A program made the position numbers and the translations under genes. Below are positions 24,278-30,861 of a DNA stretch of 64,000 nucleotides, piece by piece. Positions within the stretch are counted from its first letter, which is position 1. Each line of letters starts with the position of its first letter. The notes beneath the pieces were generated by a model. That model was not told the DNA's origin and did not search any database. It worked only from the letters and a program-made list of their open reading frames with translations. Origin of the DNA: Acidobacteriota bacterium (GTDB taxonomy: Bacteria; Acidobacteriota; UBA6911); assembly GCA_963664705.1 (NCBI GenBank), contig OY761556.1:3968001-4032000 (forward strand), in the 5' to 3' direction.

Positions 24278-26188
24278 CTACCCTTTTTCGGTTTGCTTTA
24301 CAATCGACCGGTAGGTAGCCCAAGTCAACAGACATAGCACCAGGACCGATAGAATATCCCTTGCCGGAACCGAGCGGATGAATGCGAGCGGTAGTTGTAC
24401 GTCAAGCCCAATCGGGATTGCCAGAAAAATACCGGTCAGGGCTTCCCCCGCAACCAGTCCGGCACATACCACCGTCCCGGTCTGAATGGCCAATTCCATT
24501 TTTGAAGAACCCTTATATTTCCGGCTGACCAGAAGGTGCACAATTCCGCCGAGCAGAATAGGAAGCGTTGTGGTAAATGGGAGATAGATCCCCACCGCAA
24601 CAGCCATGGGACTGATCCCAAAGCTGGATCCGCGATGCTTCAGATATTCCCCGAGGATAATCAGAAAAATCGCAAACACAGCACCGAAACCGATCATATT
24701 CCAGGGCAAACTGGACCCTTCCATGAACAGGCCTTTGGCCATAGCGGAAAACATGCTTGCCTGGGGAGCAAGCAGCTTATCCGACCCTATTCCAAATGCC
24801 CTGTCCAGGAAAGCCATGAGCGGCGCGGCCAGAAGCGATGTCGCAACCACGGCGATGATCAATCCGGCCTGCAGGGATTTTGGTTGCCCGCCGACAATCA
24901 TGGCTGTTCTGAAATTCTGCGCGGCCGTTCCCGAAAGGCACGCAGCCAGGCAAACGACGCCTGAAATCAGCAGAATGGTGCGAACCGCTTCCGCACCTGC
25001 CAGTCGCCCTGCAAATAGAAAGACGGCGGCCAGCAGAAACGTGCAAATCGTGATCCCGGATACGGGCTGATTTGTGCTCCCGATCAGTCCAACGATATAC
25101 ACGGAAATCGCCACAAAGAAGAAAACCGCAAGCACTGTATACAAGGTCGCGATCCCTGCTCCGAGCGGACTCACATTGTAAAAATATATTCCGGCCGCTA
25201 TGAGGATTCCGGTAATGATGAAAAACCAGATCGTTCCCCTCTGCAGGTCGGTCTCACGGGACTCGCCTGAAGCACCGTCTGCAGTCCTGGTTTCGCTCAG
25301 CCCCACGACCGCAGATCGAATGCCGGCAGCCAGTTGTCCCCGGATCTTCACAATGGACCACAAGCCACCAATGGTCATGCCTCCAACCCCGATGTATCGC
25401 ACCTGGTTCGCCCACATGGCTGATGCGGCCGCGTCCGGTGCTCCCGCAACGTGCTGCAATGCCGTAAACAGAGGAATGAAAAAGAGCCAGGCAAGTGCGC
25501 CGCCCAGCGCTACAAGCGCAGCACCATCGAATTCAATGATGAAGCCAACGCCGACAAGTGCAGCCGAGACATCCGAGCCCAACCGAAAAACGGCACTCCC
25601 CAGGCGAAAGGCACCCGAGACCGTCTCCTGAAAAACAGAGATCCCCGAAGATAAAACCTTCACGGCAAACCCGCCGAAAAAGGCGGCAATGACGCTGCGA
25701 ATCCCTTCGCGACGCCCTTCTCCGAACGCGGCCATTCCCGTTTTCAGGATTTCGGCGGTAGCCACGCCCTCGGGGTATTTTAGCTCCTTGGATTCCACAA
25801 CCATGGGACGACGAAGAAACCCGGTGAGAACAATCCCTAATATGCTGCCGGCCAGAACTGCCAGCGTGACGGTGGCATATTCCGCCGTTCCCCACGCGGC
25901 AAATGGCTTTAGAGCGCCGGACAATACAAGCGCCGGGAACACGAAAATGACACCTGCGGCAAGTCCCTCTCCGACGGAACCTGTGGCTTGCGACAGATTG
26001 ACCTCCGCCACCGAGCGGGTGCGCATTATGGTGTGAAAGAGTATCAGGGCAATGACGCTGCAGGGTATGTTCGCACTGATGGTTATCCCAACCTTCAGCC
26101 CAAGATACATATTTGCGGCGGCCATGGCCAGGCTCAATACAACACCCACCACAATTGCCCTAAGTGTAAACTCCCTGCTGTTCTGCAT
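24278..26188 (-). CDS. OPT-family oligopeptide transporter
   Basis: REFTLRA, NMYLGLKVG, LKYPEGVATAE, LAPQASMF, GLVAGEAL. Start at MQNSREF (26188). Confidence 0.92.
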   Translation of the reverse strand: MQNSREFTLRAIVVGVVLSLAMAAANMYLGLKVGITISANIPCSVIALILFHTIMRTRSVAEVNLSQATGSVGEGLAAGVIFVFPALVLSGALKPFAAWGTAEYATVTLAVLAGSILGIVLTGFLRRPMVVESKELKYPEGVATAEILKTGMAAFGEGRREGIRSVIAAFFGGFAVKVLSSGISVFQETVSGAFRLGSAVFRLGSDVSAALVGVGFIIEFDGAALVALGGALAWLFFIPLFTALQHVAGAPDAAASAMWANQVRYIGVGGMTIGGLWSIVKIRGQLAAGIRSAVVGLSETRTADGASGESRETDLQRGTIWFFIITGILIAAGIYFYNVSPLGAGIATLYTVLAVFFFVAISVYIVGLIGSTNQPVSGITICTFLLAAVFLFAGRLAGAEAVRTILLISGVVCLAACLSGTAAQNFRTAMIVGGQPKSLQAGLIIAVVATSLLAAPLMAFLDRAFGIGSDKLLAPQASMFSAMAKGLFMEGSSLPWNMIGFGAVFAIFLIILGEYLKHRGSSFGISPMAVAVGIYLPFTTTLPILLGGIVHLLVSRKYKGSSKMELAIQTGTVVCAGLVAGEALTGIFLAIPIGLDVQLPLAFIRSVPARDILSVLVLCLLTWATYRSIVKQTEKG

Positions 26189-26205
26189 ACGTGCGCCCCG
26201 CCTCT

Positions 26206-26925
26206 TCAGGAATGATCCGCTGTCACTGCACGGTCCCGGCTTCGAATCCGTGAAAAATGCCACGGGAGATATAGCAACCAAAACGATACAAATGCAATCG
26301 CCTCGACAGACAATAAATACCACGGCCATGGGCCAAGCACATCAAACAATGACGCAGCGTCCGGCTTTCGGCAGAGATATCCGTAATTCCAGCCCATCGC
26401 CCAATCCAGGATCCCTACGACCAATCCATACAGGTTCAAAGCGGCCATCATCTTCAGTATGGTTTTGGGACTGGGACTGAATCGACCATCCGAAACGAGA
26501 AAAATGATCCCCGTCAACGTCACGCCATGTCCCCAGAAAAATTGAATGAAATCCCAGGAAGGAAATCCTGAAACAAGGTCCGGCGTGGCCGTTGCCTGCA
26601 AAACGCCACCCAATCCACAGAAATAGGCAATCTCGGTAAGGAACCGGTTCGGACAGAAAAGCGAAATAGCGCACGCAGCCAGGATCAGATTACACAGGTC
26701 CAGGGGCAGCGAATACCGCCAGGCAAGAGAGTGGGTTAAACCCTGCTGAATATATAAAGCTGCGGCATAGCCTATCAGCAGACATCCAATCAGCGGTCCC
26801 AACCACTTTCGAATACGACTGGACCTCGCTTTGAACGCTATCAGGAGACAAAAACCCAGAATGACGGCCAGAGCAATTATGTGTTGAAGGTTAAATGCTT
26901 TAAAATCCCGGATCGCCGTCGGCAT
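26206..26925 (-). CDS. YwaF/TIGR02206-like membrane protein
   Basis: LPLDLC, LQATATPDL, FFWGH, NYGYLCRKP, LGPWPWY. Confidence 0.88.
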   Translation of the reverse strand: MPTAIRDFKAFNLQHIIALAVILGFCLLIAFKARSSRIRKWLGPLIGCLLIGYAAALYIQQGLTHSLAWRYSLPLDLCNLILAACAISLFCPNRFLTEIAYFCGLGGVLQATATPDLVSGFPSWDFIQFFWGHGVTLTGIIFLVSDGRFSPSPKTILKMMAALNLYGLVVGILDWAMGWNYGYLCRKPDAASLFDVLGPWPWYLLSVEAIAFVSFWLLYLPWHFSRIRSRDRAVTADHS

Positions 26926-27146
26926 CCCATCATGTTACTACAGCCGGGACATTTTGCGCTTATTTGTGAAATGCGTGCCGCGCGGCACACCTTGGCAGCC
27001 AATCATACCAATCCTGTTTCGGTCCCTGTCCGACCCGTTTTGGAATCGAAATCCTTAGTGAGGATGAAACAACAGGGGTATCATAGGGCTCCATAACCCA
27101 AAAAAATGTTGATTAGATCGAATCAGGAGTATGGAGGCAGAGATAC

Positions 27147-28931
27147 ATGAAACTCAGAGCAATCAGCATATCGATTGTTTTGATCGCGAGCTTTTTAGCG
27201 GCGGGTGCATGGGCAGCGGATGCGGCGAAAATCGTCGTGATGAATCCGCGGGGCATCCAGCCTGAAATCCGCAAGATTCCGATGGCAAAACGCCAGGCGA
27301 CGCTCGACGACAAAACAGTCTACATCGTAGATACGAAATACCCGAACACGAAACCTTTCGTTGAAGCGCTGCTTGCGGCGCTGAAAGCCAAGTATCCGAA
27401 GACCACGTGGGTGGTGAAGGAAAAGCTCGGCGGATACATGGATGATGATCCGGCGCTGTGGAAGGAAACCAAAGAGAAAGCCGCCGCTGCCATCGTCCTG
27501 GTGGGGCATTGAAGCAGCTGCTCGCCGGCAGTTGTCGGCCATGCAGTGACACTGGAAAGAATGGGCATCCCCGCGGTACCGATGATCACAGCGCGTTTCA
27601 AAGAGCTGGTAACGACGATCTCGTACAAAAAAGGGATTCCGAACATGCGGATCACCTATACGCCGCATCCCATCACCGACAGACCCCGGGATCTTTGCGA
27701 CAAGTATGTGCAGGGCAACGATCCGAACAGCGGCCAGCCGATGCTGGAGCAGATCTATGGAGCGCTGACGAAGCCTCTGTCGGCGGAAGACGCCAAAGCC
27801 GGCTTCCTCAAGCGAGATGCGCGCCCGAGGCTGTTGCCTCCGGACACGCCGGAAAACCTGCTGGAATACTTCCACGAACACGTCTTCACCGACGGCAACC
27901 CGATCATTCTCCCGACCGAACAGAAGGTGGCGGAAATGCTGAAAGCCACCAGCCGCAAGCCGGATGAATGGGTCGGCCAGATGCGTCCCTCTCCTCCCCA
28001 TGAAGCCTGGTACTACACGGTGGAAATGGTCGCCGTGAATGCCGTCATGGCGGGAGCCAAACCGGAATACTTCCCCACGATCCTGGCGATTGCCTCCAAG
28101 GGTTTGACCTCGATGTTCAGTTCGACTTCGTCGTTTGCCCGCATGGTCGTCGTCAACGGCCCGGTGGTGAAGGAAATCGGCATGAACACCAGCATCGGAG
28201 CGCTGGGTCCGAACAACCGTGCCAACTCCTCCATCGGCCGCTGCTGGACGCTGATCTCCAAGAACCTCGGCGGATCCGGGAAACCGGGAGAAACCTACCT
28301 GGGCAGCCAGGGGAACCAGTTGAACTACAACAACCTCTGCTTCCCGGAAACGGAAGAAGGGTTGCCGGCAGGATGGAATCCGTTGTCGGTACAGAAGGGT
28401 TTCAAGAAGTCCGACAGCGTGGTCAGCCTGTTCAGCGGCTGGAGCTTCAACGATATCGCCTGGTACTCGCCGCTGCCGCAGCATGAAGTCATCCGCGGCT
28501 GGCTGGAACATTTCTTCTCGTTCGGGACGACGCAGGCAACACTGGTGCTCGATCCGATTGTGGCAGCCGACGTAGCGAACATCGGGCGCTTTGCGACGAA
28601 GGAAGCCTTTGCCAAATGGCTGGCAGACAACACCGGGACCCCTGGCTGGCTGTACTGGTCGCAGAATGCCGATGCGCTGAAGCAGGCGAAGGATGGCGTG
28701 GAGCCCTATGCCACCTGGTACAAACAGGGCATGGGCGCCGTGGTGCCGGCTTCCCGCTATAAACGCGATGGTGCGGTGCCGGCGAGGAACACATCATTCA
28801 TGGCCTCGAAGGACAGCGGCGAGCCGACCAATTCGCTCGAAATCGTGGTAACCGGCGGCGGGACGAACACGTTCTGGTCAGGCGGCGATTTCGGCTATGC
28901 GGGCAGCGCGTCCGTGGATCTCTGGAGATAG
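27147..28931 (+). CDS. Exported UGSC-family selenoprotein (594 aa; Sec122 at in-frame TGA 27510-27512, UxxC motif) fused to a large C-terminal domain
   Basis: ORFs 27147-27512 and 27546-28931 share a frame (offset 399 nt) and are separated only by TGA. Read-through gives VLVGH-U-SSCSPAVVGHAVTLERMGIP. Also GGAGG RBS, signal peptide and a downstream hairpin. Confidence 0.85.
27517..27547 (+). promoter_or_regulatory. Putative bacterial SECIS element
   Basis: Lower stem gCTGC/GCAGt, upper stem GCCGGC/GTCGGC (one G-U pair), apical loop AGTT beginning after a 17-nt spacer from the UGA, with G at loop position 2. Confidence 0.7.
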
Positions 28932-28944
28932 GAGGAACGATCAC

Positions 28945-29511
28945 ATGAAAAACAGATTAATGATAGCTGCAATGGCGCTGTTGGGATTGGTCGCATGCCT
29001 CCAGCCTGTCATGGCGCAGGAGAACACGCCCACGAATCCGGTTGCCGTAAAGGTGCCGCTGAAATCGATGGTCGAACTCGGGTCGGTGTATACCAACATC
29101 TATGACATCACGATCACGGTACTTGAAACTGTTCGCGGCAATGCGGCGCTTGAACAGCTCAAGGCGGCGGATCCGAATGTCAAGGCGCCGGCAGCGGGCT
29201 TTGATTACGTGCTGGCACGCGTCAAGTTCGAACTCAAGGGGCGCTATGTCAGCGACAACCTGTCGTTTGATCTCGGAACCGAACCGCTGCAGTGGGTTTT
29301 GCTGTCGGGCGCGGATCTGACGGAATATGACCGGGTATCACTGACGGTTCCCAAGCCTGCGCTGGCAGGCATTGTGAAACCCGGCGGTTCGATGGAAGGC
29401 TGGGTGGGCTTTGCCGTTTCTCAGAAAGACACCAAGCCGGTGATGGTATTTGATCCGGATACCGGCGGCGCCACCGGGCGCGGCAAAACTCTCTTCTTCA
29501 AAATGTATTAG
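28945..29511 (+). CDS. Exported Ig-like (DUF4352-like) protein
   Basis: AGGAGG overlaps the selenoprotein stop; signal peptide; ITVLETVRG, YVLARVKF, PGGSMEGWVGFAV, PVMVF. Confidence 0.7.
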   Translation: MKNRLMIAAMALLGLVACLQPVMAQENTPTNPVAVKVPLKSMVELGSVYTNIYDITITVLETVRGNAALEQLKAADPNVKAPAAGFDYVLARVKFELKGRYVSDNLSFDLGTEPLQWVLLSGADLTEYDRVSLTVPKPALAGIVKPGGSMEGWVGFAVSQKDTKPVMVFDPDTGGATGRGKTLFFKMY

Positions 29512-29518
29512 TAGAACA

Positions 29519-29575
29519 GGGGTCGGACCCGGGAAAGTCCATATTGAAGACACGGAACTCCAAAGGTTCGACCCC
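29519..29575. repeat. Inverted repeat pair GGGGTCGGACC ... GGTTCGACCCC (REP-like)
   Basis: 11-bp arms pair with one G-T; the left arm is itself a mini-palindrome (GGGTC-G-GACCC). Confidence 0.55.
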
Positions 29576-29586
29576 AAGGCGACAAC

Positions 29587-30861
29587 ATGCTATTTGATCA
29601 GTTTGTTCAGCTGCTGCCCACTGAGGGGATCAAAATTGTTCTGGTTCTCTTCCTGGCTTTTCTCATTGGCCTGGAGAGAGAGGAACACAAAGCCAATGAA
29701 ACCCACTACTCCTTCGGAGGAGTGCGCACCTTTCCGCTCATTGCGCTCATTGGCTATTCGATTGCCCTTTTGGCTGGGAAACAGATATGGCCTGTTGTTC
29801 TGGGCTTTCTGGCCGTTGCTGGATTCCTGATGCTCTCTTATTGGCGTAAAGTCACTACGCCATTGGAAGATCAAATGCCGGGCGTGACATCCGAACTATC
29901 CGGGCTGATCACATACCTGGTAGGGCCGCTCGTTTATCACGACTTTTTCTGGATCGCGACCACTCTCACGGTAGCCAGCATCCTTCTGCTCGAGCTAAAG
30001 GATGTACTGGAGGGATTAACCAAGCGCATAGCCCCACACGAGATCCTCACCTTCACAAAATTCCTGCTGCTGACTGCTGTAATTCTACCGGTACTCCCGA
30101 ATCAGTCATTCGGGCGTTTTCAAATCAACCCATTTAAAACCTGGCTGATTGTTGTCGCGGTCAGCTCGGTTTCGTACGGCAGCTATCTGCTGCTGCAATT
30201 CACCAAAGGAAGCGGGATTCAACTCTCGGCAGTTCTTGGAGGCATCTATTCCTCGACCGCAACAACAGTGGCGCTGGCTAAGAGGTCCACTCGCGAAACA
30301 CACCCCCATCTGTTTTCGGGATCGATTCTCATGGCCTCTGCTTTCATGTATCTCCGGCTGACAATTTTGATCGGAATCTTCAACTGGGAACTGATGCGGA
30401 TACTGGCCATCCCCTTTATCAGCCTGGCTGTAGTCGCGGGGGTTACCGGTTTGTTATGGTCGCGCCGCCTTGACGGACCTCACGAGGAATTGCATCGTCA
30501 ATACCAGCATGAAAATCCGCTGGAGATGCGAGCAGCATTTTTCTTTGCTGCCATCTTCATCGTCATTCTGGTGTTTACCAGGCTGGTGTATTCCTACATG
30601 GGAAACAGGGGAGCCTATTTGCTGGGAGCGATAGTCGGATTCGCCGATGTAGATCCGTTTATCATGAGCATGACCCAGGCTACCGGGATAACCGCCCAGT
30701 TGAATGTGAGCGCGGGCGCTATTATTCTCGCGACCACGAGCAACAACCTCGCCAAAGGGACATATGCCTATTTCTTTGGCAGTCACGACGCCGGCCGCGA
30801 GGCTTTCATTCTTTTGGTGGGATTGGCGGCTGCCGGACTCATCCCTCTATTCCTGCTCTAA
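29587..30861 (+). CDS. MgtC/SapB plus DUF4010 membrane protein
   Basis: LIGLERE, GGVRTFPLI, GGIYSSTATT, GFADVDP, NNLAK. Confidence 0.9.
   Translation: MLFDQFVQLLPTEGIKIVLVLFLAFLIGLEREEHKANETHYSFGGVRTFPLIALIGYSIALLAGKQIWPVVLGFLAVAGFLMLSYWRKVTTPLEDQMPGVTSELSGLITYLVGPLVYHDFFWIATTLTVASILLLELKDVLEGLTKRIAPHEILTFTKFLLLTAVILPVLPNQSFGRFQINPFKTWLIVVAVSSVSYGSYLLLQFTKGSGIQLSAVLGGIYSSTATTVALAKRSTRETHPHLFSGSILMASAFMYLRLTILIGIFNWELMRILAIPFISLAVVAGVTGLLWSRRLDGPHEELHRQYQHENPLEMRAAFFFAAIFIVILVFTRLVYSYMGNRGAYLLGAIVGFADVDPFIMSMTQATGITAQLNVSAGAIILATTSNNLAKGTYAYFFGSHDAGREAFILLVGLAAAGLIPLFLL

Follow-up and report, generated by a model that had tools for sequence, protein, structure and literature searches.

Selenoprotein gene and partner gene

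The window, a stretch of 64,000 nucleotides from a genome of 6.89 Mb in one contig (G000), contained a fused selenoprotein gene followed by a short partner gene on the same strand (Table 1). Reading through a single recoded TGA (U122) gave a protein of 594 amino acids. The motif around the recoded codon was AIVLVGH-U-SSC-SPAVVGHAVTLERMGIP, so that residues 122–125 read U122-S-S-C125. An earlier interpretation made from the sequence only had joined two open reading frames of 121 and 461 amino acids into one frame parted by this TGA, and both frames were found as described. It had also stated that the second frame has no ribosome-binding site of its own. Inspection of the sequence upstream of its GTG at 27546 revealed no GGAGG-type motif; such a motif precedes the first ATG. 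The partner gene starts 13 nt past the stop codon of the selenoprotein gene, and the similarity of its product to DUF4352 was weak (E 0.056). An Rfam search of positions 26000–30000 gave no match, a scan for promoters and terminators remained at chance level, and the ESM Atlas offered unnamed or same-family clusters only.

Table 1. Features of the two-gene locus (window coordinates)
Feature	Position	Strand	Basis or remark
Shine-Dalgarno-like GGAGG, selenoprotein gene	27133..27137	+	sequence; precedes ATG
UGSC/Unknown_1 fusion selenoprotein gene, 594 aa	27147..28931	+	translation, family profiles, homologues
Predicted signal peptide, aa 1–23 (AWA/AD cut)	27147..27215	+	by eye, hydropathy script
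UGSC domain PF24696, aa 31–188	27237..27710	+	Pfam 98.3 bits, gathering cut-off 25; predicted flavodoxin/CheY-like
In-frame TGA read as Sec122	27510..27512	+	translation, homologue alignments, public contigs
Bacterial SECIS	27517..27547	+	upper stem-loop 27524–27539, AGUU loop; folding, comparison, consensus model
Cys125, predicted resolving cysteine of U-x-x-C	27519..27521	+	kept in 31/31 Sec paralogues
C-terminal domain 'Unknown_1', aa 223–594	27813..28928	+	published figure, model, conservation
AGGAGG of partner gene	28930..28935	+	sequence; overlaps selenoprotein stop codon
Gene for the 188-aa partner protein (predicted exported; weak DUF4352 similarity)	28945..29511	+	co-duplicated with selenoprotein gene

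Selenocysteine at position 122

A search of the genome with PF24696 returned 35 paralogues, every one in a frame of 557–650 codons. Of these, 31 had a single TGA, always at the same column, and all 31 read U-x-x-C, with the position of Cys125 invariably kept; Sec was absent in the other four. Two non-Sec paralogues were arranged head to head (G000:C1:2728377–2732179), both apparently without a signal peptide. In other genomes, 42 of 45 alignments (41 loci) had TGA at position 122; one had ATG, and two were offset, with the TGA three codons further on. All 32 close orthologues carried TGA, and none had TAA or TAG. Among 34 distant representatives of at least 480 amino acids, cysteine occupied the Sec column in nine (a clear C-x-x-C in seven), and the remainder had Ser, Met, other residues or gaps. 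The expectation that homologues would show Sec or Cys at this column was thus borne out. A sequencing error hiding TGC or TGT had also been considered. Contigs from three public runs, covering two samples and two studies (X1 and X3 represent one sample, X5 belongs to another study), had the TGA and no alternative letter.

The protein had been expected to be hidden by gene callers, and the database contained it in fragments: the best 120 of 3682 matches were 330–460 amino acids long and covered at most 78% of the query. Such lengths would be expected if callers cut each close homologue at the UGA. On this sequence evidence, the two open reading frames are almost certainly a single gene in which UGA is read as selenocysteine.

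SECIS element

The predicted AGUU hairpin was present (GCCGGC-AGUU-GUCGGC), with a loop beginning 17 nt past the UGA and a lower stem extending to 27547. It has 6 bp, a 4-nt loop with G followed by U, and an energy of −9.0 kcal/mol. The bacterial consensus as worded in PMC13188914 comprises a loop of 3–9 nt located 16–37 nt after the UGA, a stem of 4–16 bp, a G in the first two loop positions and an energy of at most −7.5 kcal/mol, and the hairpin agreed with every item. Its stability by itself did not exceed that of shuffled sequences in five windows (z −0.88 to +0.33), and the comparison with synonymous shuffles gave p 0.055. Such a hairpin at ≤ −4 kcal/mol occurred in 20 of the 31 Sec paralogues, compared with 19% of 1773 other positions, and in 10 of the 31 it was better than synonymous shuffles at p<0.05. 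Only three of 195 four-fold sites were nearly invariant among the 32 close orthologues (P127, V130 and G131), and all three are in the SECIS stem. The loop-closing pair was G-C in 30 and A-U in five of 35 sequences and mixed in none, these sequences being related and the swaps hence not independent events. The proposed register paired at 76% in 56 distinct sequences, which is weak alone, as two slid registers reached 69%. The constraint on synonymous sites and the G-C/A-U swap back the assignment of the hairpin as a SECIS.

In the D-U-G-S-C-T-K clade (L003, L013, L014, L015 and L017, with the relatives L051, L064 and L077), the short hairpin was absent. These sequences fold a long, conserved stem that carries a bulged U and places the loop about 25–35 nt past the UGA, making this a second type of SECIS in the family.

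Selenocysteine machinery

In a profile search of the genome, selA, selB and selD were each represented by two genes above the cut-offs, and two long-arm tRNA-Sec genes were detected. The complete machinery, selA, selB, selC and selD, whose presence had been suggested as a check, was therefore found in duplicate. An additional tRNA-like element of 72 nt (G000:C1:1625651–1625722, minus strand) has a UCA anticodon and an acceptor stem broken by two mismatches; it is probably not a working tRNA. The second full cluster (L086:6597–12310; G000:C1 about 3,072,600–3,078,300) contained selB, selA, selD and tRNA-Sec, and its selD was fused to a CMD (AhpD-like) domain. Its tRNA-Sec gene is followed by a methyltransferase gene that contains an in-frame TGA as well as a strong hairpin and has corrinoid and URO-D genes as neighbours. 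We considered two orthogonal SelB/SECIS systems serving the two hairpin types. This idea was dropped because 23 of 29 genus relatives had a single selA (two in four, none in two), a test that counted selA alone.

Probable Sec sites of other families were located in G000:C1 at 2412510+, 3078482−, 4261972−, 4399622−, 4666877− and 6757229+. Their contexts were CG-U, ST-U, PT-U-PYC, YCT-U-PNE (two) and TS-U-AC, and the site at 6757229+ is directly upstream of a 99% copy of the two-gene unit described below. A count of the total selenoproteome was abandoned: coding-score screens were too noisy, recovering five of the 31 known sites among 186 candidates and 29 of the 31 among 1811.

UGSC domain

The assignment to the UGSC family made in the sequence-only reading agreed with the Pfam score (Table 1). 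The score for the NCBIfam equivalog NF041046 was 68 bits, below its cut-off of 125. By these profiles, the protein belongs in the Pfam UGSC family and outside the narrow equivalog. Zhang and Gladyshev (2008, PMC2398784) listed 255 UGSC selenoproteins and called the fold 'likely Trx-like', and in the GOS survey the family ranked in the top five selenoprotein families by abundance (PMC2398784, PMC1976440, PMC13188914). The sections on this family in PMC1976440, PMC13188914, PMC9312934 and PMC7539508 give no function for it.

An AlphaFold2 model of the mature protein had a pLDDT of 93 and a pTM of 0.91. With the Sec domain of the model as the query, Foldseek returned flavodoxin-like, CheY-like and other Rossmann-like chains (best E 0.002). 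The best structural match had Z 10.3 and rmsd 4.2 over 139 aligned residues, which are middling scores. Thioredoxin-fold proteins were not among the structural matches listed. The Sec domain is thus predicted from the model to have a flavodoxin/CheY-like fold, and the thioredoxin-like fold proposed earlier was not upheld.

The sequence relative of the domain was GrdB/PrdB. With hhalign, the Sec domain matched a template of eight GrdB/PrdB-family sequences from other genomes, a shallow one, at 89% and E 2.3e-6 over about 60 columns. Controls gave 0.6% for the reversed sequence and 0.4% for the C-terminal domain. A set of 16 short UGSC proteins matched the GrdB/PrdB profile at 90% and E 1.6e-6. 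Judged by these comparisons, the UGSC Sec domain is a profile-level relative of GrdB/PrdB. PF07355 (GrdB/PrdB) had no match in this protein or genome, PF09338 (the GrdE/PrdA pyruvoyl proprotein) had none in this genome, and sequence searches against solved structures returned nothing under E 0.06. Short stand-alone PrdB-like genes were seen in 36 of 150 Acidobacteriota genomes (L093–L116), and a GrdE/PrdA-family gene in only one of 250.

C-terminal domain

The fusion to an uncharacterised domain was confirmed, with a size of about 370 rather than roughly 350 amino acids. This UGSC/Unknown_1 fusion is already known since 2008: it is shown in Fig. S1A of PMC2398784, and the published segment AVNxVMAGCxPEY...NG aligned by eye, from the text of that figure, to amino acids 296–338. 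The MAGC motif reads MAGA in 31 of the 35 paralogues. The domain has neither a conserved cysteine nor a conserved Cys/His ligand set; its conserved polar residues are D249, N337, N347, N360, R365 and E401.

Modelled alone with AlphaFold2, the domain had a pLDDT of 93 and a pTM of 0.92. It corresponded to no Pfam family, and fold searches with the model found no match (Foldseek best E 0.11, VIA best Z 4.8), a blank that speaks neither for nor against a new fold. Homology to GrdE was not seen: comparison with one GrdE sequence gave 0.8% and no profile match. The conserved Ser/Thr loop 326–329 was weighed as a mere candidate for a pyruvoyl or self-cleavage site. Other architectures were observed in a set of proteins (P0191, P0201, P0239, P0252 and P0268) that includes two tandem C-terminal domains without a UGSC domain and a surface-anchored-looking form of 1254 amino acids, in which a C-x-x-C UGSC domain is combined with two C-terminal domains.

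Probable export and the duplicated two-gene unit

The cleavable signal peptide (AWA/AD) and export proposed earlier are probable, as the pattern is typical by eye and by a hydropathy script. A crude hydropathy/Tat rule was passed by 28 of the 35 paralogues. The most divergent Sec paralogue (L019:1378–3207) has a twin-arginine-type signal, SRRSFL, which hints at export of a folded or cofactor-loaded protein. Three other paralogues have lipoprotein-like cysteines.

Among 35 close loci, 30 had the partner gene, at ≥60% identity, following the selenoprotein gene, and three of the five misses were at a contig edge; it was absent from all six more distant loci. Within this genome, seven of the eight called partner copies adjoined a paralogue. 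The two-gene unit (27146–29515) recurs at 99.4, 94, 90 and 71% identity (G000:C1: 6758056, 2633642, 4763641 and 6853343). The copies are alike only from the start codon to the partner stop codon and their flanks are unrelated, which suggests gene conversion or ORF-bounded duplication. An assembly artefact is unlikely as the source of the near-identical copies: the contig depth of the cassette was about 3–4x that of its flanks, and loose contig ends at the cassette matched other copies.

Expansion within the genus

At E 1e-5, each of the 29 further genomes from the genus contained 8–52 matches to the PF24696 family; the copy counts are approximate, since these relatives are MAGs whose contamination reaches 8%. 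At least 52 matches were present in one relative, and 33 of the 45 in another (G006) had the TGA. Among 21 genomes from ten sister genera, four had one or two matches and the rest none, and of 200 genomes drawn from the phylum, 15 had one or two, no more than 16 candidates being scored in each. The paralogues in G000 are on a single contig, and most are 23–63% identical to the protein studied here. The genes adjacent to the 35 copies were mixed and named no pathway.

Acidobacteriota MAGs, with 82–91% identity, were the closest named relatives. The UBA6911 study (10.1101/2021.04.09.439258) had deposited three of them, so that the genus is probably UBA6911; terms beginning with 'selen' do not occur in the main text of that study. 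Orthologues in Desulfobacterota were 75–81% identical and formed one clade inside the subfamily in a quick tree. The ten largest selenoproteomes tabulated from BSepDB have 46–63 genes in total, none of them from Acidobacteriota (PMC13326102), compared with 31 Sec genes from one family here. Since callers split these genes, the selenium demand and the secreted enzymes of the genus are likely undercounted. The literature searched contained no published account of the genus-wide expansion, the fold reassignment or the GrdB/PrdB link. The family and the fusion were known.

Split and operon forms

Of 20 loci across the phylum, three were fused and 17 had a short UGSC gene; in 12 of these 17, a gene for the C-domain, mostly with MAGC, was located no more than 1.5 kb away. 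The MAGC cysteine was retained in most stand-alone C-domain forms. Natural split forms part after the UGSC domain and not at the Sec. In six of 11 extended regions, the C-domain gene encoded an N-terminal CPTC or CATC domain, and a CxxC domain was fused to it in one further case. Three proteins with similar CxxC domains matched AhpC-TSA, Redoxin or Thioredoxin_2 in Pfam. Two genus relatives had an operon consisting of a Pyr_redox_2 gene, a short UGSC gene, DUF6282, a C-domain gene, two DHDPS-like genes and two long forms, together with CoA transferases and a MaoC gene (Pfam labels from one of the two). Going by this gene content, the UGSC/C-domain unit is linked to catabolic genes in these genomes. 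The neighbouring separate genes in other genomes indicate that the UGSC and C-terminal domains make up one functional unit, and the CxxC fusions and the Pyr_redox_2 operon tie this unit to a thioredoxin-type donor. By analogy, the pairing parallels PrdB/PrdA and GrdB/GrdE.

Proposed function

We give about an even chance to an exported selenol-nucleophile reductase of the GrdB/PrdB type, in which the C-terminal domain is predicted to hold a small substrate. SelB very probably binds the hairpin and inserts Sec122, and the protein is predicted to be exported and cleaved after Ala23. As in PrdB, the Sec122 selenolate would then attack the substrate bound to the C-terminal domain and break or reduce a bond. 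For PrdB, an attack of its Sec on PrdA-bound proline has been proposed (PMC3091704), and the substrate-binding role of the C-terminal domain is drawn by analogy only. Cys125 would release the product, leaving a Se-S bond, and a thioredoxin-type donor, suggested by the two-gene versions in other Acidobacteriota, would re-reduce it. In the periplasm, this donor may be fed by DsbD, a family with one match in this genome. Speculatively, the 35 diverged copies could cover different substrates, with the partner as an accessory subunit in one clade. Several results weigh against the reductase: GrdB/PrdB matched over only about 60 columns with a shallow template, the C-terminal domain had no profile match to the GrdE sequence compared, 31 of the 35 paralogues have Ala in place of the Unknown_1 cysteine, and the neighbours of the copies point to no pathway. 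The existence of members with neither Sec nor Cys suits non-redox roles for some of them.

Rather less probably, the protein is a periplasmic enzyme of general antioxidant or thiol-disulfide function, with the C-terminal domain as a scaffold or stabiliser. GrdB itself reportedly has peroxidase activity, to go by the title of one study. The thioredoxin-like fusions fit an antioxidant equally well, one close homologue has the NCBI name 'Thiol-disulfide oxidoreductase protein', and most U-x-x-C selenoproteins have been assigned redox roles, as described in PMC2398784. However, 8–52 copies at 23–50% identity are hard to square with one generic task, and the conserved polar residues of the C-terminal domain resemble those of a catalytic or binding site.

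Handling of a metal, a metalloid or selenium, for example as a carrier or repair factor for molybdenum or tungsten enzymes, is improbable. Within 5 kb of a paralogue lay 6 of 20 presumably aldehyde-oxidoreductase-like and 5 of 23 presumably xanthine-dehydrogenase-like genes, labels given for a relative also by Pfam, compared with 5.6% of all genes. In one genome (L150), a fused form was seen by eye amid presumably xanthine-dehydrogenase-like genes. The families were chosen from the neighbours, however, which biases the p-values, TonB-like and other expanded families were equally enriched, and the C-terminal domain lacks a conserved Cys/His ligand set.

A binding or envelope selenoprotein, using Sec for covalent capture or sensing without a catalytic cycle, is more improbable again. 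Large families of exported paralogues are often binding proteins, members with neither Sec nor Cys occur, and TonB-like genes were frequent neighbours (8/37), but all 31 Sec copies keep the resolving cysteine, and other genomes show a link to thioredoxin-type donors. Finally, it is scarcely credible that the TGA truly terminates translation, as in a pseudogene or a pair of genes, or that it results from a sequencing error. The hairpin is not significant by itself, the best database matches are fragments and separate UGSC and C-domain genes occur in nature, but the frame is broken within a single Pfam domain, at its catalytic column, natural splits come after that domain, and the orthologues and public contigs show TGA without variant.

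Returning to the selenol-nucleophile reductase, we tentatively suggest a third branch of glycine/proline-reductase selenium chemistry, driven by thioredoxin and free of pyruvoyl, which in this one genus of anaerobic habitats would be fused, periplasmic and multiplied up to 50-fold. If true, the genus would possess a set of enzymes that cleave bonds and bind their substrates through a domain whose fold is unsolved, and a single family would suffice to bring its genomes close to the largest recorded selenoproteomes. UGSC has stood without a function since 2007 as far as the accounts of the family in PMC2398784, PMC1976440 and PMC13188914 go. The GrdB/PrdB link, the thioredoxin-type fusions and the confident model lead to a first concrete assay plan for it.

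Comparison with known systems

The protein shares with the UGSC family (PF24696; NF041046) the U-x-x-C at the family column and a SECIS after the UGA. It differs by its length (594 compared with about 170 amino acids), its USSC instead of UGSC, its predicted signal peptide and the 31 Sec copies per genome. In the published UGSC/Unknown_1 fusion, the Unknown_1 segment is likewise behind the UGSC domain, but the MAGC cysteine highlighted there is Ala304 here; the passages of PMC2398784 on this fusion do not mention export, a partner gene or paralogue expansion. Thioredoxin-fold U-x-x-C selenoproteins also have the U-x-x-C opening a helix after a hydrophobic strand, whereas the top structural matches here were flavodoxin-like, CheY-like and other Rossmann-like chains. 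Unlike GrdB/PrdB (PF07355), the protein is predicted to be exported and no pyruvoyl cysteine was identified. In common with GrdB/PrdB it has the U-x-x-C followed by a helix and E-x-x-G-I-P, and the larger partner subunit and the thioredoxin-type donor of that system provide a further parallel.
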